In this document: positions 98 through 56,311 of the stretch, piece by piece
How positions within the stretch are numbered: the stretch's first letter is position 1
How the letters are laid out: the number at the start of each line of letters is the position of its first letter
Assembly (NCBI GenBank): GCA_017456005.1
Contig: JAFTLJ010000096.1
Span: 1,597 to 65,596, forward strand
DNA: 64,000 nt
Reading direction: 5' to 3'
Source: Clostridia bacterium
Lineage (GTDB): Bacteria; Bacillota; Clostridia; Oscillospirales; CAG-272
Notes under the pieces: model-generated
Seen by the model: only the letters and a program-made list of their open reading frames with translations
Told to the model about the DNA's origin: nothing
Databases searched by the model: none
Program-made: the position numbers and the translations under genes

Positions 98-580
98 TCA
101 CGCCTCGGTGATCCGCTTGCCGCAAAGATGCTCCACCGACAGCGCTAAAAGCAGGGTGGCTTTGCCGAAATCGGCGATCTCTTTTTCCACGTAGCCGCCG
201 TCGGAGGTGAATTTTTCTGACAGTCTGCGGCAAACGGCTCTTACCGTCTCTTCATCGTCCACCACCTTGATCCGCCCGAAGACCACCAGGCTTTCAAAGC
301 GGTCTGCCCAGGGGAGGTGCTCGTCCTTTCCCCGCTCTGCCATCAGGCAAAAGGATGCCTTGTCACTTTCCCTTATGGCGTCGGCGCGGTGCCCTTTGCC
401 CCTTCCGCAGTGAAACCAGAGGAGCTTTTGCTCCTCGTCGTAAAAAAAGTTCATGGGCATCCCGTAGGGGTAGCCGTCCTGCCCGTTTACCGACAGCACG
501 CCCCGCTTTTCGCTTTTCAAAAGGGCGATGCACTCTTCAAGGCTTAACGCCTTGTTTTTTCTCTGTAGCTCCCGAAACAT
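98..580 (-). CDS. Pyridoxamine 5'-phosphate oxidase-like / NimA-type (5-nitroimidazole reductase-like) flavin-binding protein
   Basis: 160 aa; MFRELQRK start, GVLSVNGQDGYPYGMPMNF and FHC..GH motifs, ESLVVFGRI; resembles PNPOx/Nim family. Confidence 0.75.
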   Translation of the reverse strand: MFRELQRKNKALSLEECIALLKSEKRGVLSVNGQDGYPYGMPMNFFYDEEQKLLWFHCGRGKGHRADAIRESDKASFCLMAERGKDEHLPWADRFESLVVFGRIKVVDDEETVRAVCRRLSEKFTSDGGYVEKEIADFGKATLLLALSVEHLCGKRITEA

Positions 581-995
581 TTCTTTTTTCTCCTTTTTCC
601 TCGGTCTTTTCCCCGTTTTTTGCCTTTTTTGAAAGCGCGGGGCGCGCCAGCTCTCTTTCGATATACGCCATTAACAGATCCACGATCTTTTTCTGTTGCT
701 CTTCGTCAAGCGCCCTGCCCTTCTTCACCCGATACCACTTTTCAAGACACCCCCTGCAGCAGCAGGCGCAGGCGTGCTGGGCAACGAAGCAGGGATGCCC
801 CCGCATAGGGGTCTGCCTGCCGTCGTTTGGCGGCTCGGCGGGGGCAAGGCGGGTTCTTATAAAGTCGGCGCAGTGCCTTCTCACCGTATCCATCCCCACC
901 CTTTTGACGTACGCCCGATCGCTTTCCGACAGATGAAAGGAGGAGCGAAACGCCGAGCGCTCCAGGCGGTCAAGTGCCTCGTTGATGCTTGCCAT
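537..995 (-). CDS. DUF4186 family protein
   Basis: SAFRSSFHL, RLAPAEPPNDGRQTPMRGHPCFVAQHACACCCRGCLEKW signature; SD GGGGAAGGA; upstream minus-strand TTGACA-17-TATACT promoter at ~1031-1059. Confidence 0.85.
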   Translation of the reverse strand: MASINEALDRLERSAFRSSFHLSESDRAYVKRVGMDTVRRHCADFIRTRLAPAEPPNDGRQTPMRGHPCFVAQHACACCCRGCLEKWYRVKKGRALDEEQQKKIVDLLMAYIERELARPALSKKAKNGEKTEEKGEKRNVSGATEKKQGVKP

Positions 996-1180
996 ATCCT
1001 TCCCCCTTTTTTCTCTCGTTTTCTCCCTACAGTATACCCCGACGTTCCCCCAATGTCAAGACGGCAGAGGGGCAGAGAAGAAAAAAAGGTGAACCTCGCC
1101 TCTGCATTCTTAGCGGAGAAAACACGAACACCACCAAGGAAATCTCTTTGGTGGTGTTCTTTGTTGACGACGGCTAAGCA

Positions 1181-1205
1181 AAGCCTCCCTTGTGTAAAGG
1201 GAGCC
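1181..1205. repeat. Short palindromic REP/MITE-like repeat (CTCCCTTGTGTAAAGGGAG)
   Basis: Palindrome CTCCCTT-GTGTA-AAGGGAG; related copy on the opposite strand at 31411-31433. Confidence 0.55.
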
Positions 1206-1482
1206 TTATATGCGCCGTTCTTCTGCGGATAGTGGGTTCGGGCTTCTGCCCGATCGTGCGAGGATGTCCACGCGCTATGCTTGCCCCGGACGCCGGGCGT
1301 CGGGAAAGCGGAAAATGCGAGTTCGTAATTTGACTTTTTTATCTTTTTGTGTTAAACTATTGCTGTAAATATTAAAGCAAAAGTTGAATTGCGTTGGTAA
1401 ACTGCTTGGTGTAAAAGTTTAAAAAAGATATGTATAATTAGGGTACAAAAGCGCTTTTGAATTATCACAAAGGAGAATGATT

Positions 1483-2538
1483 ATGTCTATTGGAACTACA
1501 ATCAAAAAACTTCGTCGTGACAGAAATATCACACAGGAGCAGTTTGCTGAAATGTTGGGCGTTTCTACAAACGCTGTCTCGCAGTGGGAGTGCGACAAGA
1601 CCGCACCCGATATTTCACACCTTCCCGTGTTAGCAAATATTTTTGAGGTCAGCGCGGATGTCCTTCTTGAAATTGATATTGCCAAAAGCAAAAAGCAATC
1701 CGAGATCAAAGAATTTACAGCCAAGTACGCAGAATTTCACAGCCAAGGAAAAACAGAAGAAAGACTAAATCTCTGCCGTGCAATGCAGAAGAAATATCCA
1801 AACGACGAGACCGTGCGTTACTTCTTGATGAGAGTATTGCAAAACGGATATATCGACGAAAGCTTTGATGAGATTGTTATGCTCGGTGAACAGCTTATGG
1901 AATCCACCAATATGGAATATCGAATGGGAGCCATTCGCGGTCTGTGCTTTACCCATTTGCACAAGGGTAACAGAACTAAAGCTTTACAGTATGCGGATAT
2001 GATTCCTCCGACAGAAGATCTCCATTTACATGTTTTAGAAGGTAGTGAACTTGTAGAGCATTGTCAGAATTATTTCTGGAAGATTTGTGACAGAATGTAC
2101 CTCTACATGGCGTATTTGCTTGATTGCACGGAAGCCGGGTACACCCACGATGAAAAACATGAAATGTGGGATACTCTATACAATATGTTCCACATGATTT
2201 TCTCTAACCAGGATTTCGGATTTTGGCATGACCGCTTGGCTCGAATCAGCTTCTTTATGGCACTTGAAAGTGGGAAAGCAGGGACGTATGAAAAAGCAAT
2301 CTGTGAGCTTGAACAAATGCTTGCTCATATCGAAAGGGAACAAACCTTTACTAATATTTCACATTCGTCCTTGCTTGTCAATAGAATTAAAATCGATCAA
2401 ACCAATATTGCCAAGAGCAGCACAGAAACGCTCGGTCACGTTTATTTGAGATATCTCAATAACAATGATGCGGTGTTTGCCTCGATCAAGGATATGCCTC
2501 GCTATTTGAACATCAAAGAACGGCTTGCAGAGCTGTAA
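1483..2538 (+). CDS. XRE-family HTH transcriptional regulator with long helical (TPR-like) C-terminal region
   Basis: N-terminal IGTTIKKLRR..TQEQFAEMLGVSTNAVSQWE..PDI HTH_3 motif; SD AAGGAG 8 nt before ATG 1483; terminator GCCCCGC..GCGGGGC-TTTT follows the stop. Confidence 0.85.
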   Translation: MSIGTTIKKLRRDRNITQEQFAEMLGVSTNAVSQWECDKTAPDISHLPVLANIFEVSADVLLEIDIAKSKKQSEIKEFTAKYAEFHSQGKTEERLNLCRAMQKKYPNDETVRYFLMRVLQNGYIDESFDEIVMLGEQLMESTNMEYRMGAIRGLCFTHLHKGNRTKALQYADMIPPTEDLHLHVLEGSELVEHCQNYFWKICDRMYLYMAYLLDCTEAGYTHDEKHEMWDTLYNMFHMIFSNQDFGFWHDRLARISFFMALESGKAGTYEKAICELEQMLAHIEREQTFTNISHSSLLVNRIKIDQTNIAKSSTETLGHVYLRYLNNNDAVFASIKDMPRYLNIKERLAEL

Positions 2539-2703
2539 TGCTCGCCCCGCCACGCGCGGGGCTTTTCTTTGTTTCCTGCATATCAAAAGCCACCACGAAA
2601 AACGTGGTGGCTCATTTCAATTTTACCGCTAATTTTTCAGACCTTCCCCCGAGCTATTTTTTTGCTTGAATTATATTTATAAAGTTCTTTGAAAGGCTTT
2701 CTT

Positions 2704-4365
2704 TCAAGAAAGCGCGGTGGCTTTTGCCCATTCCACGATATTGCGTATGCCGGCTGTGCCTGTTTCTGCATAAGTTATGGTGAGAGTGTCGCCCTCGCGG
2801 ATAAAGAGAACGCTTTCATCCTCCGCAACGGAAACGCGGTAATAGTTGCCGTCGGAGCAAAGGAAATAGAAGAAAGAGTTGCCTTCTATAACGAGCTTTT
2901 CGATTTCTTTAACAGTTGTGTTTGCCAAGGTGTCTTCCGATGTGCCGCCGCTTATTCCGCTTTGTGAAAGGAGCTTTTTATATGCGTTCATGGCTTCTGC
3001 CTGTGTATCGCCTATGGCTACGATGCCAACCTGGCTTACGTTTACAAGTCCGTACTGCTTAACGTACCCGTTGGCATCCTTAAGCACCATAATGTACGTT
3101 GCCTCGCCCGATACGTTTATAAGCGCGGGGAAGGAGGCCTTGTAGTTCATGTGCTGGACCTCGCCCTCTGCCGCGTTCATAGCGGAGTATTCCTCTGCGC
3201 CCACAACGGAGTAATATTTATATTCGCCCGTGCGCGCGTTGGAAACGATAAAGCCTATATTGGAAGCGTCTGCCGTAACAGAGGTTACGCCCGTATAGTA
3301 CCATACGTCGTCGTCATACATAAGGTAGCCGAAATCGTCGGTAGTCTGCTTGCAGCCTTTGTTGCCGATAACGCTGTTCCAAAAGCCGCCGGAAAGAAGC
3401 CCGTGCCAGTTGTATTTATCCTCTGCAAGGTAGCCGTCGTAAACGATATCTATCCACTGCGGAACCTCGCCCACGGACACTTTTGTATGCGTGCCGTCGC
3501 ACGGGTTGAAGATGATCACTTCGGAAACGTCGTATGCGCCGAAAAGGCCTACTTTGGGTGTCATACAGGAAACTATGAAGTAGGGCGTGCCTTCTTCGTC
3601 TATTTCAAAGGCTATCGTGCCGAAAATTTTTGTGGGGTAATTGAAGCGGAGAGTGCGTAAAAGGTCGTCGCCGAAATAGCCGCTTTCCACATATTTTAAG
3701 GGTGTTGCGAGCTTCTTATATTCCGCCTTGTTGTTTACAGGGTCTACCATAATATATCCCGGAACGCCCTGCGCGCGATTGCCGAGCCATTTGAAGAAGC
3801 CGTCATATTCGAGGTTGGAAAGCTTCTGCGGTGTTCCGTGGTAGTTTATCTGGGTATAATTGCCGTTCACGATATACTGCGAAACAACGTCGGAAAGGTT
3901 GCCGAGCGCACGGTTGCCGATGGTAACGGCGGAATCGGAATCCATAAGCGCAATGTTGGTAACGCTGTTTGTTTCGGGCATATCCGTGGCGAAATCCGCC
4001 TCTTTTACGGAAATAACATCGGCATATCTTTTGGCGTTAAAAAACGTAGAGGAAACTATACTGCCTACTATAAGTACGGCTATGGGCAACGCCACAGCGG
4101 CGACCATTATTTTGAATTTCACAGTCCTTGTCTGCGGGGCGAACTCCACGCGAGTGGCGGAGCCGGGCAGGGAGTATACCTTAAAGAGCTTTGTGAGCCC
4201 GAAGGGCACGAGGTATATTGCCAGCACCGCTGTCAGGAAGATCCAGAATTCCGTGGAGCAGGGGTTGAGAGGCGGGAGGAAAATATAAAAGAGCAAGAAA
4301 ACGATTGCCGTGCTTACAAGAAGCTTTACTATTGCCGAAACGGCGGGGTTGATTTTTTTCATCAT
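2704..4365 (-). CDS. Conserved clostridial membrane protein (3 N-terminal TMs plus large extracytoplasmic domain)
   Basis: 553 aa ORF with SD GGAGG, hydrophobic N-terminus, motifs WYYTGVTS and GAEEYSAMNAAEGEVQ; function unknown. Confidence 0.75.
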   Translation of the reverse strand: MMKKINPAVSAIVKLLVSTAIVFLLFYIFLPPLNPCSTEFWIFLTAVLAIYLVPFGLTKLFKVYSLPGSATRVEFAPQTRTVKFKIMVAAVALPIAVLIVGSIVSSTFFNAKRYADVISVKEADFATDMPETNSVTNIALMDSDSAVTIGNRALGNLSDVVSQYIVNGNYTQINYHGTPQKLSNLEYDGFFKWLGNRAQGVPGYIMVDPVNNKAEYKKLATPLKYVESGYFGDDLLRTLRFNYPTKIFGTIAFEIDEEGTPYFIVSCMTPKVGLFGAYDVSEVIIFNPCDGTHTKVSVGEVPQWIDIVYDGYLAEDKYNWHGLLSGGFWNSVIGNKGCKQTTDDFGYLMYDDDVWYYTGVTSVTADASNIGFIVSNARTGEYKYYSVVGAEEYSAMNAAEGEVQHMNYKASFPALINVSGEATYIMVLKDANGYVKQYGLVNVSQVGIVAIGDTQAEAMNAYKKLLSQSGISGGTSEDTLANTTVKEIEKLVIEGNSFFYFLCSDGNYYRVSVAEDESVLFIREGDTLTITYAETGTAGIRNIVEWAKATALS

Positions 4366-6762: not shown

Positions 6763-6863
6763 ATCTTTGCTAAAGCGATAATGATTGTAGCACAAAAAAA
6801 ACACTTTGTCAACCTCAATTTAAAAAATAATTTAAAAATTTTAATAAAAGCAAAGGAATATAA

Positions 6864-7718
6864 ATGAAACTGACCGATATGTCTTATGCCCACGAGGTTA
6901 TGGCGCGCCACGGCATAGCGCCGAAGAAAAAGTTTGGGCAAAACTTCCTTACATCAGATGCCGTAGTAAGCCACATAGCAGATACGCCGAGCGAGGATGC
7001 GGACGTGGGCGTGCTCGAAATAGGACCCGGCATAGGCACGCTTACAGAGGCGCTCGCGGAAAGATACAAAAAAGTGGTTTCCGTGGAAATAGACGAAACG
7101 CTCTTGCCCGTGCTTGCGGAAACCGTGGGCTGGCGTGAAAACGTGGAGATAGTAAACGGAGATGCCATGAAAATAGATTTTCCGGAATTTGTGCGTGAGC
7201 ATTTCGGCGATATGCGCGTGTGCGTTTGCGCAAATCTGCCATATTATATAACGTCACCGATTATTATGAAGATACTCGAATGCGGCGCTCTTTTTGAATC
7301 CGTAACGGTTATGATACAGAAAGAAGTGGCGGAACGCCTCTGTGCCAAAGCGGGAAGCGTCGATTACGGCGCGATAACCGTTTTTGCCGCTTACCTTGCA
7401 GATGTGGAAAAGTGCTTTAACGTGTCGCCCGGCAATTTTTTGCCGCAGCCGAAGGTTACGAGCGCGGTCATCCGCATGAAGCCGCACAAAACGCCGCCTG
7501 TGAGCGTTAAAAACCCCGAAAATATGCAAAAAATAATAAAAGCGGCGTTCGAACAGCGCAGAAAGATGCTGGCCGGTGCGCTTGCCGCCGCCACGGGCAG
7601 AGTGAGCAAGGCGCAGATATCGGAGAAAATAGCGGAGGCCGGCTTGCCGCAGGATGTGCGCGGCGAAAAGCTTTCGCTTGCGGATTTCGCACGCCTTTCA
7701 GATATACTTGAGATGTAG
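6864..7718 (+). CDS. rsmA: 16S rRNA m6,2A1518/1519 dimethyltransferase
   Basis: KKKFGQNFL, VLEIGPGIGTLT, ANLPYYITSPI and MIQKEVAERL motifs. Confidence 0.97.
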   Translation: MKLTDMSYAHEVMARHGIAPKKKFGQNFLTSDAVVSHIADTPSEDADVGVLEIGPGIGTLTEALAERYKKVVSVEIDETLLPVLAETVGWRENVEIVNGDAMKIDFPEFVREHFGDMRVCVCANLPYYITSPIIMKILECGALFESVTVMIQKEVAERLCAKAGSVDYGAITVFAAYLADVEKCFNVSPGNFLPQPKVTSAVIRMKPHKTPPVSVKNPENMQKIIKAAFEQRRKMLAGALAAATGRVSKAQISEKIAEAGLPQDVRGEKLSLADFARLSDILEM

Positions 7719-53368: not shown

Positions 53369-54217
53369 ATGCCTGAAAACAGAAATAACGTATGCGCAGG
53401 TGTAGACTTCGGACGCGACACGGTGTATATCGATACAAACAGAATTCTCGATTGCTGCCGCGATAAGGATTGCTTCGAGGACGTACCCGTTTACCTCGCC
53501 TCCCCCTGTGCTGAAGTTTTGCAGACTTGTGTAAATATCAGGACAAAAAGCGCCGAGATCATCGCCGCAAATATAGGGCTCGACGAAATTCCGTTCAGCC
53601 CCGGATTCTACCAAATAAATATAAGGATGTTCTTAAAAATAAAATTTGAAGTTTGCCTGGCAAACGGCAGGGCAGAGGAGGTTTGCGGGCTCTGCGTGCT
53701 CGACAAAAGCGTGATACTTTTTGGTGGCGAGGGCAACGTAAGCGTGTTCCGTTCCAAGGCGGAGGAGGGCTCCTTCTGTGCAGGTATACTTACGGGTAAG
53801 AAGCACACGAACCTGCCCACAGCCGTATTTGAGGTAGCGGCACCGATTATCCTCGGCACAAAGGTGGCAGATCTTATGCCCGGCATGCGTTGCGGCGTGT
53901 GCCCGTGCGACATTCCCGAATGCGTGGCGGATTGCTTCGACGGCTGTATGTCATACACTTCCAATATGCCGCGTATAATTACGGTTTCCATAGGGCTTTT
54001 CTCTGTTGTGCGTGTGGAGCGCCCGGGGCAGTACCTCGTTACGGGAACGGAATATGCCGTGCCGGAAAAGGTGTGCCCGCCCGATTGCCCGGAAAACCCC
54101 TGCGAAATGTTCCGCAGAATGAGCTTTCCCGTGAACGAATTTTACCCTCCCTCTGCCATAGGCTACCAGCCGAAGGTGCAGGCGCAGGGCGGCTGCGGAT
54201 GCGGCAAAGCAAAATGA
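53369..54217 (+). CDS. Cys/Pro-rich conserved hypothetical protein (possibly spore coat/exosporium)
   Basis: SD GGAGG; ILDCCRDKDC, many Cys, PCEMF..FPVNEFYPP, terminal GCGCG. Confidence 0.75.
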   Translation: MPENRNNVCAGVDFGRDTVYIDTNRILDCCRDKDCFEDVPVYLASPCAEVLQTCVNIRTKSAEIIAANIGLDEIPFSPGFYQINIRMFLKIKFEVCLANGRAEEVCGLCVLDKSVILFGGEGNVSVFRSKAEEGSFCAGILTGKKHTNLPTAVFEVAAPIILGTKVADLMPGMRCGVCPCDIPECVADCFDGCMSYTSNMPRIITVSIGLFSVVRVERPGQYLVTGTEYAVPEKVCPPDCPENPCEMFRRMSFPVNEFYPPSAIGYQPKVQAQGGCGCGKAK

Positions 54218-54334
54218 CATAAAAGAAAAAAACAGACTGTCGTCTCTGCTTTCTTAGCGGAGAAATAGGCTGCACAAAAAACATCGTCAGAGAACTTGTT
54301 TTCTCTGACGATTTGTGTTATAATGGAATGGGTG

Positions 54335-54874
54335 ATGAAGATGGATAACGAAAAAGAATTACCAAAACGAAAAGATATCCGTTTGAAAAACTTTGACTAT
54401 AGTTCTCCCGGTGCCTATTTTGTGACAATATGTACTGAAAACCGGAAAAATTACTTTTGGAGTGGTGAACTGAATCCGCAAATATTTGAATGGCACTCCG
54501 TAGGGGCGAACTGTGTTCGCCCGCAAAATCTCCCATTGTCCAACATTGGAAATGCCGTTCTAGAGGAATTGGAAAAATGGCATAAAACATATGAATCTGT
54601 GGCATTGTGTTCATACGTTATTATGCCGAATCATTTGCATATTATGATTTTCATCTCTGCCGATGAATACGGGCGACCGCAGGTCGCCCCTACGATAGAT
54701 AGGATGGTAAAGCAATTTAAGGGATCTGTTACCAAAAAGATTGGACATCCTATTTGGCAGAAATCTTTTATGGAACACGTAATCCGAAACAAGCATGATT
54801 TTGAAACCAGATCAAAATATATCTACGAAAACCCTCTTCGGTGGTACTATGACGAATTGTACGCGGAAGAATAG
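54335..54874 (+). CDS. REP-associated tyrosine transposase (RAYT, Y1 HUH family)
   Basis: RKDIRL..FDYSSPGAYFVTICT, YVIMPNHLH (HUH), WQKSFMEHVIR, YIYENPLRW. Confidence 0.9.
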   Translation: MKMDNEKELPKRKDIRLKNFDYSSPGAYFVTICTENRKNYFWSGELNPQIFEWHSVGANCVRPQNLPLSNIGNAVLEELEKWHKTYESVALCSYVIMPNHLHIMIFISADEYGRPQVAPTIDRMVKQFKGSVTKKIGHPIWQKSFMEHVIRNKHDFETRSKYIYENPLRWYYDELYAEE

Positions 54875-54932
54875 GGGCATGGGCTTTGCCCGATGCCTTT
54901 GTAAAACAAAGGCGAAACTGGCGCGATAAAAC

Positions 54933-55313
54933 ATGGAAGGAAAAAATATGAATATTCTGTATGATTTATATATTAGTTGCACTGAGGAAGAATGCGGCAA
55001 AAAATATTGGGCAGAGCATCTTATAGGTACTTTCAAAACTAAAGATAAAGCCACTACTACGATGAAAAAAGTAATGAGTGAAGGTAAACCGTTTTCAAAG
55101 CCCGATTGTGAGCCACGAATACAGGAGGTGGAATTAGTTGGAGAAATTTTAAATGTTGATTCTGTATATCGCTTTTTTGGATATAACAAAGATGGAGATA
55201 TAATTTGTAGCTCTTATTATGCAGAAAAAGCTACAGCAATCCAAGATTTCATAAGGGCAAAGAAAAACAATTATGGACGAGATTGGTCTTTGAACACCTA
55301 TAAATTAGGATAA
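54933..55313 (+). CDS. Hypothetical protein (AT-rich cargo)
   Basis: 126 aa ORF (start may be 54948), followed by hairpin CCCCCGACAGA..TCTGTCGGGGG. Confidence 0.6.
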   Translation: MEGKNMNILYDLYISCTEEECGKKYWAEHLIGTFKTKDKATTTMKKVMSEGKPFSKPDCEPRIQEVELVGEILNVDSVYRFFGYNKDGDIICSSYYAEKATAIQDFIRAKKNNYGRDWSLNTYKLG

Positions 55314-55408
55314 TTACCGTTTTTTTATACAAAAATCCCCCGACAGACTTTAGAAAAATCTGTCGGGGGGTATCTCTTTGTTTTTTGCGGATCAAATATT
55401 GCTTATCC

Positions 55409-55456
55409 GTAGGGGAGACCTGCGGTCTCCCGCGGGCGAACACAGTTCGCCCCTAC
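55409..55456. repeat. GTAG-type REP doublet (REPIN-like)
   Basis: GTAGGGGAGACCTGCGGTCTCCC-GC-GGGCGAACACAGTTCGCCCCTAC; sister REPs at 54500-54522 and 54671-54693. Confidence 0.88.
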
Positions 55457-55535
55457 CGTGTGTTTGTGAAAGATTTTGCGCTTTCTCCGCTAATTTTGCA
55501 CGCGCTCGTGCGACAGTCTGTTTTGCTATGTAAGC

Positions 55536-56024
55536 TTATTTTTCGGGAATGAATGCTCTGATAACAGCGAATACACCGTTGATTATGAGTATTACACCTG
55601 CAACGATAACAGTCCATTCGATAGCGGCGCCGCGGCTTGTGATAAGGAAGAAGGAAGCAACAAGACCGAGAGCAGGCTCGATAAGACCGAGAACAGTTGC
55701 GAGAATTTTGATCTTTCTGTTTTTAACAACTGCTACTATTGTTCTGATGATTTCGGCAAGGCTGTAAACGAGGATAACGATGCCGAGAACGAGGAGCGCG
55801 ATGTCGAGAAGCAACCAACCGATAAGAAGAACGGCTGCGCCGAGAAGAACTTTTACAATGCCGGATGCTATAGCGCCGCGAACGAGGTCGAGAATTGCGA
55901 GTACGATGAGGGCAACACCGAGAACGGAGATGCAAATGCCGATAACGTCAGCTTTTAGAATAACAAAGAGGATACCAAGTGCCAAGGTCATAGCAGCAGA
56001 GATGAGATGGGATGTGGTTTTCAT
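55536..56024 (-). CDS. DUF308/HdeD-like membrane protein
   Basis: SD AAGGAG; about six hydrophobic segments in repeated LG...L pattern. Confidence 0.7.
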   Translation of the reverse strand: MKTTSHLISAAMTLALGILFVILKADVIGICISVLGVALIVLAILDLVRGAIASGIVKVLLGAAVLLIGWLLLDIALLVLGIVILVYSLAEIIRTIVAVVKNRKIKILATVLGLIEPALGLVASFFLITSRGAAIEWTVIVAGVILIINGVFAVIRAFIPEK

Positions 56025-56311
56025 TGACAAACTCCTTAAAAAAATTGAATTTATACTTATTTAAAAGTATATGAATATATGGTTTCCGTTGCTGTTTAAC
56101 ATAATATCACAAAATATGTGTAAAGTCAACAAAAAAACAAAAAAATATTGTGCTGTACGACAATTTTTCGGTGTATCAAAATGCAAACATTTTGCATAAA
56201 AAGCATTGACAAACCCAAATCTATATGATATCATATTGATATCACAAGACAATGGTGTTTTATTATAAATATAGTAACTGTGCCGCTTCGCGGCAGAAGG
56301 AGTGTGCTTAT

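Follow-up and report, generated by a model that had tools for sequence, protein, structure and literature searches.

Tn6104 of C. difficile encodes a TnpX-related large serine recombinase (LSR) together with a mob gene, and the 2-bp repeat of this element recurs in its circle and its empty site; the target of TnpX itself is 2 bp long (PMC3158075, available part of the article). Among multi-targeting LSRs, a clade that includes TndX-like transposases carries DUF4368 in 63% of its members, and for one multi-targeting LSR 21 targets with a TT core and T/A-rich flanks were described (Durrant et al., preprint 10.1101/2021.11.05.467528, available part). Here, a 1264-bp cassette without a recombinase gene of its own is described, which lies in a 64,000-nt stretch of a Clostridia metagenome-assembled genome (MAG; GCA_017456005.1, contig JAFTLJ010000096.1), termed the window in the following. 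It belongs to a widespread family of cassettes that sit in the apex of terminator hairpins and share their ends with larger LSR-encoding elements, and the cassettes are most likely non-autonomous passengers of this LSR.

The cassette interrupts a terminator hairpin between two convergent genes that end at 54217 (+ strand) and 55536 (- strand), as had been recognised in an earlier note on this DNA. The perfect 12-bp inverted repeat (IR) reported there, TTAGCGGAGAAA, was confirmed at 54254-54265 (+) and 55482-55493 (-); the 12-mer occurs exactly three times in the window, the third position being 1110 (+). The region is laid out as ...AAAACAGACTGTC / GTCTCTGCTTTC-TTAGCGGAGAAA ... TTTCTCCGCTAA-TTTTGCACGCGC / TCGTGCGACAGTCTGTTTT.... 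Logan contigs from four other public runs (X2, X4, X8 and X3, from at least three studies) were aligned to positions 53600-56100 of the window. In each of the four runs, one contig spans both flanks without the cassette at ~99% identity (3-7 differences per 420-640 nt). Given the empty locus in all four other runs, the insertion is real and recently mobile.

The joint of the empty allele is 54239->55506 in all four runs, with TCGT assignable to either side; run X2 deviates solely by an indel of one A in the A-run. The 1266 nt skipped comprise the 1264-bp cassette and one TC, and the insert was corrected to 54242-55505 with a TC dinucleotide on both sides. The right end formerly placed at 55497 is thus 8 nt short of the true end at 55505. 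The flanking duplication, previously thought to be 1 bp at most, is 2 bp when judged against the empty alleles, which hold a single copy (TC, although up to 4 bp, TCGT, are ambiguous at this locus), and 2 bp in 32/32 complete family copies. A perfect 18-bp stem had been proposed as the site before insertion. The natural empty allele, ...AAACAGACTG-TCGT-GCGACAGTCTGTTTT, has a stem of 10-13 bp and the loop GTGC, and the longer stem was an artefact because its inner 5 bp are the right terminus of the element, GCACG, pairing with CGTGC. A matching site, AAACAGGCTGTC-GCGC-GACAGCCTG, with compensating changes in the stem, was found in the closest species-level relative (80% identity). At the sites of the relative G005 that are orthologous to two other insertions (C9 and C8), the terminators differ and are hence uninformative. 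With the corrected right end, the 12-bp IR lies 12 nt from each terminus; it is symmetric, and the asymmetric subterminal IRs of the earlier note resulted from the misplaced boundary. The IR extends imperfectly to the tips, with TGCA common to both (CTCTGCA/TGCAGAG in other copies). The boundaries are as follows.

54229..54241, + strand: left flank with the A-run and the 5' arm of the host terminator; the TC at 54240-54241 would be the left crossover dinucleotide
54242..54265, + strand: left arm, consisting of GT-CTCTGCTTTC and then the 12-bp IR TTAGCGGAGAAA; putative half-site of the recombinase
54242..55505, + strand: cassette, 1264 bp between two TC, delimited by the empty alleles and the boundary rule of the family
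55482..55505, + strand: right arm, IR TTTCTCCGCTAA followed by TTTTGCACGCGC; proposed second half-site
55506..55524, + strand: right flank with the right copy of TC (55506-55507), the remaining loop, the 3' arm and the T-run

Further paired ends proved to be numerous in the source MAG as well as in GTDB genomes. The source MAG (G000; 2.12 Mb in 101 contigs, 94.65% complete) holds 12 matches to the 22-nt left end with up to 3 mismatches, compared to 0 for the reversed control. A looser scan yielded ~14 left ends (15 pattern matches, of which one on C87 is apparently spurious) and matching right ends. Eight of the ~14 left ends are located within ~500 nt of a contig end; polymorphic cassette copies appear to break MAG assemblies. 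When GTDB was scanned for an exact 21-mer, with one genome per species, at least 115 loci were obtained, and the matches listed all belong to gut/rumen Clostridia MAGs (Oscillospiraceae, 'Eubacteriales', Anaerotruncus, Avispirillum). Of 301 evenly sampled genomes of the order, 11 genomes from at least six families contained the end (up to 2 mismatches), with the highest number, 11 ends, in the source MAG. In ruminant gut metagenomes, the summed contig depth was 445-3615 for the left end versus 4-19 for single-copy flanks, which is a community-wide sum and not a copy number. No genuine tandem array was seen in the loci examined, as the sole pattern match (L110) was spurious and had no right arm.

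Beyond the shared 21-30 nt, the 115 matches listed fall into left-end classes A (57), B (33), C (17) and D (6), with two others. Class A left ends continue with a hairpin and then TTGTTT-17-TGnTATAAT; class B left ends carry the hairpin GAACACCACC, usually followed by an HTH_3(+TPR) gene. The window itself contains a second member of the family with class B ends. Unrelated cargo within the same ends had already been noticed at this place, and its product is now identified as a regulator, but the element runs to 2644 and not to 2636.

1098..2644, + strand: second family member, class B ends, with TC at 1096-1097 and 2645-2646
1483-2538: cargo of this copy, an HTH_3 + TPR-like regulator of 351 aa

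The junctions of the family obey a simple rule. For each two-ended element, the 4 nt to the left of CTCTGC (X4), the 8 nt after ..CCGCTAATTTT (R8) and the next 4 nt (Y4) were extracted. X4 and Y4 begin with the same two letters in 32/32 complete elements (TT, TC and once AC), while the later letters agree only in part. Target duplications of 4 bp and a right end of greater length were also considered and dropped, as across all pairs only the first 2 nt agree in every case. At the 115 listed left ends, the dinucleotide is mostly TT (65) or TC (38), followed by TA (5), AC (4), TG (2) and CT (1). Both arms vary in their outermost 2-5 nt, and a conserved TGCA...TTAGCGG..AAA is found further inside.

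Empty sites were rebuilt as left flank, Y4 and right flank and compared with shuffled right flanks. Twenty-three of the 32 rebuilt sites fold at -10 kcal/mol or below (shuffled controls: -2 to -7). The other nine are without a strong hairpin, among them the copy at 1098..2644, whose site gives no clean hairpin and with -3.0 kcal/mol stays at the level of the shuffled controls. In 20 of the 23 sites with a hairpin, the core dinucleotide is at most 2 nt away from the loop centre, and in seven it coincides with the centre. The query and C35 have their cores at -3 from the loop centre, and their loops, GTGC and GTAC, offer no T-pyrimidine step; for the last of the 23, a core at 16 is a mis-assignment. 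Among the matches listed, an A-run within 30 nt upstream of the left end was found in 109 of 115, and the left neighbour gene is directed into the cassette in 24/32. From the junction rule and the rebuilt hairpins it follows that the cassettes are placed in the dyad centre of palindromes resembling bidirectional terminators, with one copy of a 2-bp sequence on either side.

The same ends are shared by elements that encode a recombinase: these end in the same 21-30 nt as the left arm of the cassette. In class C left ends (17 of the 115 matches listed), an LSR gene is encoded on the opposite strand, with its stop codon 78 nt inwards from the tip. The LSR coding sequence is visible in 14 of these 17 loci and the remaining three are too short to tell. 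The intact copy in L059 (547 aa) matches Resolvase (5.5e-28), Recombinase (2.4e-20), Zn_ribbon_recom (3.8e-13) and DUF4368 (1.1e-13). Copies with 94-100% identity occur in G333 (with one in-frame TGA), G334, G335, G336 and G342. In addition, the LSR or a piece of it (90-98% identity) is contained in 16 metagenome contigs that were examined; left end and gene are 132-134 nt apart in 11 of them, while in three the left end would lie off the contig and in two it is missing. The LSR was not found in viral contigs.

A complete element of ~5.9 kb with both ends, core TA and hairpin flanks is present on G333:C10. It reads AAAAAATGAAGGATGGCT-TA-CT / CTCTGC... and then ...TTTTACCGCTAATTATGCACCCCC-TA-GCCATCCTTTATTTTTT, i.e. 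it has the same arms and follows the same junction rule as the cassettes. Generally, the LSR gene lies on elements of 6 to >10 kb that carry an S24/LexA-like repressor. L262 contains a MobA/VirD2 relaxase (Relaxase PF03432, 2.1e-38) and MobC/NikA, while no relaxase was found among the open reading frames (ORFs) scanned in L258 or G333. The LSR-bearing elements are integrative mobilisable elements. L058, L089 and L101 have kept only the last 87-119 codons of the LSR gene and appear to be derivatives of the LSR element that arose by internal deletion. Genomes with the LSR element contain cassettes as well. In G333, which has the complete element, there are four left ends, and two of these lie in terminators of adjacent tRNA genes. 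These two terminators (L255:730-790 and 6800-6875 on G333:C10; the flanks end with the T-arm and CCA) are near-identical, and one is occupied by the 5.9-kb LSR element and the other by a class A cassette.

Given the fact that 17 of the 115 listed loci with the same end abut an LSR gene on mobilisable elements, the cassettes are likely passengers of the LSR; the query cassette, which is without a recombinase, is at best a non-autonomous relative of the LSR elements. It is considered fairly probable that a transposon-type, multi-targeting LSR with a DUF4368 tail, encoded on larger mobilisable elements with the same ends, moves the cassettes. The two ends, imperfect inverted repeats of ~24 bp, would be joined in a circle to give an attP-like site consisting of right arm, 2-bp core and left arm. 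The LSR would bind the arms, excise the cassette as a circle and re-insert it by conservative recombination at a 2-bp crossover (mostly TT/TC) in the dyad centre of palindromic A-run/hairpin/T-run terminators. The cassette would bring its own insulating hairpin, promoter, cargo and terminator and could therefore land between genes without breaking them. The earlier proposal of a non-autonomous, terminator-targeting family moved in trans by a recombinase outside the window thus holds for the family and its targets, and the probable LSR is indeed absent from the window and from the source MAG; the analogy to IS1111/IS110 is not supported, since the recombinase found within copies is an LSR and no IS110-type DEDD enzyme.

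Action of the LSR in trans is suggested by the shared ends and the shared junction signature, not by co-occurrence, and several observations weigh against it. A close homologue of the LSR is absent from the source MAG (best identity 29%), although the highest number of cassette ends among the 301 genomes is found there, and none of the 301 genomes of the order holds a homologue with more than 48% identity, yet 11 hold cassette ends. The six serine recombinases of the source MAG were examined as candidates and set aside, being at most 29% identical to the LSR of the element. The single LSR element seen with both ends (G333) has an in-frame TGA in its LSR gene. Furthermore, the core dinucleotide varies among LSR copies of 94-100% identity (TG, TC, TA, TT and AT, the last read from the flanks), which counts against the LSR because the core should stay fixed if recombination at a 2-bp crossover is conservative. 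The excised form may have mutated, interiors may have been exchanged between copies or the chemistry may differ, and exchange between cassette copies is visible in mosaic joints of metagenome contigs.

The circular intermediate would be marked by a right-to-left joint. A contig of run X3 (depth 13) has a joint 55501->54243, in which the right end ..TTTTGCAC is followed by CACCTTC and the left end TCTCTGC... This joint (..GCACCACC-TTCT-CTCTGC..), obtained at a likeness setting of 90%, is the sole circle-like one; it would fit the junction of a circle but could instead stem from two copies of a related cassette in tandem, head to tail. The right-left junction pattern had 0 matches in JGI metagenome contigs. 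Finally, a 2-bp crossover and a 2-bp target duplication made by a DDE transposase cannot be separated by sequence alone.

Such a DDE transposase, e.g. an IS30-like one, could move the cassettes in trans as units similar to miniature inverted-repeat transposable elements (MITEs), with IRs of ~24 bp, a 2-bp duplication and a preference for palindromic targets. Duplications of 2 bp are made by IS30, which prefers a palindromic hot spot. The terminal IRs and the 2-bp repeat of 32/32 copies would agree with this explanation, and so would the variation of the repeat between near-identical copies, as a true target duplication is free to vary. An IS30-family transposase is even encoded in the source MAG (G000:C33:1540-2605, L188; 223 bits), but cassette-like IRs were found at 0/30 IS30-family loci of the order, and the family is present in 3/11 cassette genomes versus 46/290 genomes without cassettes. 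No DDE gene was found inside any element; the sole recombinase found between these ends is the LSR. The outermost 2-5 nt are moreover the most variable part of the ends, which is unusual for DDE elements and usual beside the crossover of a recombinase. Overall, a DDE transposase is regarded as an unlikely mover, although it is the alternative that survives best. L188 itself is a 2.6-kb contig that ends at the stop codon of the IS30-family gene and has no cassette-like IRs. DDE_Tnp_1 was not found in the source MAG, and its two rve genes were discarded as unrelated to the ends, one belonging to an ordinary IS3-like element and one to an insertion sequence (IS) within a gene on C20.

The next candidate is encoded by the cassette itself, in an ORF at 54341-54874 that was missing from the earlier account of the insert. 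Its product resembles the REP-associated tyrosine transposases (RAYTs), which act on repetitive extragenic palindromic (REP) sequences. It matched NCBIfam REP_Tyr_transpos with an E-value of 2.9e-17 (62.9 bits, under the cut-off of 80), PDB 4ER8 (TnpA-REP) with 5.5e-5 and Pfam Y1_Tnp with only 0.03. In the alignment to 4ER8, HLH aligns with HMH and YIYENP with YIYINP, i.e. the HUH motif and the Tyr are conserved. This Y1 HUH protein could act as a transposase by an IS200/IS605-like single-strand 'peel and paste' mechanism into hairpin loops, which would offer single-stranded targets, and the other cassettes would then be non-autonomous. It is the sole nuclease-like gene that recurs in small cassettes, directly after the promoter in 11 of the 115 listed left ends by pattern (13 by eye), and RAYT-like genes occur in 6/11 cassette genomes compared to 67/301 overall (up to 9 matches each). 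However, 26 of 30 inspected homologue loci lie outside cassettes and four inside; several of the former adjoin REP-like hairpins (GTAGGGGCG...CGCCC), the expected substrate of a RAYT. The homologue is absent from 5/11 cassette genomes (completeness 85-99%). The dinucleotide after the right terminus follows the target within one lineage (TT in L040/L043, TC in L112/L113/L120), which a fixed right cleavage site of an HUH enzyme would not give. The ends are also inverted repeats and not two subterminal hairpins of like orientation. Transposition by the RAYT-like protein is therefore held to be improbable, even more so than by a DDE enzyme. As its homologues are mostly outside cassettes and absent from 5/11 cassette genomes, and the dinucleotide at the right junction depends on the target, the RAYT together with its REPs was read as cargo of the cassette.

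A tyrosine recombinase that tolerates heterology, comparable to those of Tn916/CTnDOT with their coupling sequences, was considered because the 4 nt at the junctions always share the first two letters and the next two above chance; this pattern resembles overlap regions of partial homology. Still, none of the three tyrosine recombinases of the source MAG lies between such ends. Next to the C63 copy, an XerC-like gene is present only as a neighbour, and the tyrosine recombinase of L066 is part of another element. This element, which also encodes TnpV (5.8e-33) and a helix-turn-helix (HTH) protein, cuts the HTH gene of a class B cassette (L066:4389-6391). A tyrosine recombinase thus appears very improbable. 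The IS1111/IS110-type DEDD (bridge-RNA) recombinase can be dismissed almost entirely: hairpin targeting without a long duplication, as known from the IS1111 group, would speak for it, but no DEDD_Tnp_IS110 match over the cut-off exists in the genome and none in 59 ORFs scanned from 80 loci, the IRs are symmetric with a 2-bp repeat in 32/32 copies, and the targets are alike in structure and not in sequence, so that a fixed guide RNA could not read them.

The interior of the query cassette, moved by the LSR in the preferred explanation, consists of the following features.

54283..54312, no strand assigned: 12-bp hairpin with a T-run on either strand, from a scan for terminator-like structures; kept in 57 class A left ends
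54296..54324, + strand: inward promoter-like site, TTGTTT, 17 nt, TGT-TATAAT (extended -10); kept across class A
54341..54874, + strand: cargo gene 1, RAYT-like Y1 HUH protein of 177 aa with HLH motif and YIYENP
54500..54522, + strand: REP-like GTAG + GC-rich hairpin within the RAYT coding sequence, ~10 copies in the genome
54671..54693, inverse sense: second REP-like hairpin in the RAYT coding sequence, ending with CTAC
54872..54923, + strand: conserved 52-nt module between the first gene slot and the cargo gene, GGGGYATGGGCTTTGCCC...GCGAAACTGGCG
54948..55313, + strand: cargo gene 2, 121 aa, without a Pfam/NCBIfam match
55337..55369, no strand assigned: cargo terminator hairpin of 15 pairs, CCCCGACAG...CTGTCGGGG, conserved in other copies
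55409..55456, + strand: REP-like doublet GTAG-hairpin-hairpin-CTAC ahead of the right arm; the module is also found in L033, L074, L084 and L088

The hairpin at 54283..54312, immediately inside the left arm, resembles a bidirectional terminator with an insulating role. The site at 54296..54324 is a putative promoter; its -35 region matches 3/6 bases and a simple consensus scan did not list it. The 52-nt module (GGGGTATGGGCTTTGCCC...GCGAAACTGGCGATAAA) recurs in 34 near-identical instances in other loci (e.g. L047:3710-3779) and adjoins the ribosome-binding site of the cargo on its upstream side in class A cassettes, with or without a preceding RAYT gene. Its summed contig depth is 292-2186 in four metagenomes. 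It is too conserved for a covariation test, and its sole variable pair shows both compensated and broken cases. No Rfam family matched the module; the hits in window positions 54000-55800 at E-values up to 1 were chance matches below the gathering scores. For cargo gene 2, 13 homologues were found outside its own cluster, none of them with a recognised domain.

Metagenome contigs recombine these modules, with joints at 54325-54328, 54497/54523, 54669, 54871/54872, 54923 and 55337-55433. As these joints show, the family is a mosaic, with recombination among the promoter-bearing left end, the REP hairpins, the 52-nt module and the modules of the right end.

As a rule, RAYTs are domesticated genes present in a single copy, and group 1, which is present in Clostridia, is the most IS-like (PMC5581495, available part). 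The hairpins in the RAYT coding sequence of the cassette (GTAG + GGGCGAAC..GTTCGCCC) encode VGANCVRPQ and GRPQVAPT, and RAYT homologues in other genomes carry the same hairpins within or next to the gene. A variant cassette of the source MAG with the left end CTCTGTTGTTCTTAACGGAGAA (G000:C20:780-2660, L187) carries a second RAYT-like gene, into which an IS with an rve domain (425-aa transposase) is inserted directly after the HUH motif. Another RAYT homologue with 69% identity (L142, G251:C5) is without cassette ends, but ~70 nt upstream of it the cassette promoter and a partial left arm (GCGGA-TAGGTTGCA) are found in a local hairpin; the locus may be an immobilised remnant of a cassette. GC-rich palindromes, GCCTCCCTCCGAGAGGGAGG and GGGACCGCGTTAGCGGTGG, are also present in class A leaders without a RAYT (e.g. 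G000:C8:30170-30330 and L183:2700-2890), and they form the 3' ends of DUF559 cargo genes as well (protein tail ...KASLREGGG).

The cargo of the family is diverse. At 80 loci (up to 4 kb of flank), the 59 largest plus-strand ORFs with a start no further than 1 kb from the left end were searched against Pfam; a few of these ORFs lie outside the element. HTH_3 was most frequent (14), followed by Y1_Tnp (3, with four more RAYT-like by their N-terminus). DUF559, GNAT and DUF4304 were found twice each, and NUDIX, EamA, S51 peptidase, DUF6487 and TnpV once each. One GH32 and one methyltransferase gene are probably outside the element, and the remaining ORFs had no match. Apart from the Y1-like gene, no transposase was detected among the 59 ORFs scanned.

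If the LSR moves the cassettes, they represent a natural system that places expression-ready genes at the apex of terminators without disrupting host genes. For a multi-targeting LSR, such a choice of target would be new, and it could account for the spread of accessory genes among uncultured gut Clostridia. As integration tools, LSRs that use short att sites and a ubiquitous target defined by its structure would be of practical interest. More tentatively, and with somewhat less confidence than doubt, gut/rumen Clostridia might host a dispersed, integron-like 'plug-in' system of hundreds of self-expressing cassettes that an LSR drops into any bidirectional terminator loop. Each one- or two-gene cassette would then possibly consist of insulator, promoter, leader module, cargo and terminator. 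Insertion would then be safe at every intergenic terminator, and cassettes would exchange modules, the RAYT with its REPs among them.

In the literature searched, with subscription journals outside the scope, neither the 17-nt left end nor phrases for terminator targeting gave a match. A recombinase-less swarm of self-expressing cassettes, the terminator apex as target and a nested RAYT/REP system were likewise not found described there. The enzyme class, the 2-bp rule and the multi-site behaviour are already known, as they were described for Tn6104/TnpX and the DUF4368 clade. By description rather than by direct comparison of the LSR with TnpX, the elements resemble Tn4451/Tn4453/Tn6104 in their terminal LSR, the relaxase with MobC, the 2-bp repeat at the junctions that is single in the empty site, the imperfect IR ends and the multiple target sites (PMC3158075, available part). 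They differ in that most copies here are of 0.7-2 kb and carry promoter, cargo and terminator without a recombinase. The target here is the apex of a terminator hairpin, with a variable core that is mostly TT/TC. TnpX and TndX use a GA core.

Judged by domains and site features and not by a tree, the LSR also resembles the DUF4368 multi-targeting clade, with its four-domain architecture, many attB sites, TT core and A/T-rich flanks; the available part of that work catalogues LSRs and att sites and makes no mention of recombinase-less cassettes or of targeting of the terminator apex (10.1101/2021.11.05.467528). With integron gene cassettes, the units described here have in common that they are small, hold one or two genes of diverse function and depend on a recombinase from elsewhere. 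Unlike these, they have no attC/attI and form no array, possess their own promoter, are dispersed in terminators and would use a serine instead of a tyrosine recombinase. Cis-mobilisable elements (CIMEs), ccr-less pseudo-SCC (staphylococcal cassette chromosome) elements and MITEs have kept their ends and lack the enzyme, which is supplied in trans, and some of them arose by internal deletion. An origin by deletion, as L058, L089 and L101 appear to show, would be similar, but the cassettes form a large modular family with self-contained expression signals, unrelated cargo and many sites per genome. The RAYT-like cargo with GTAG-headed, GC-rich hairpins in and beside the gene finally recalls REPIN/RAYT systems, with the difference that the RAYT and its REPs ride here within another mobile unit.

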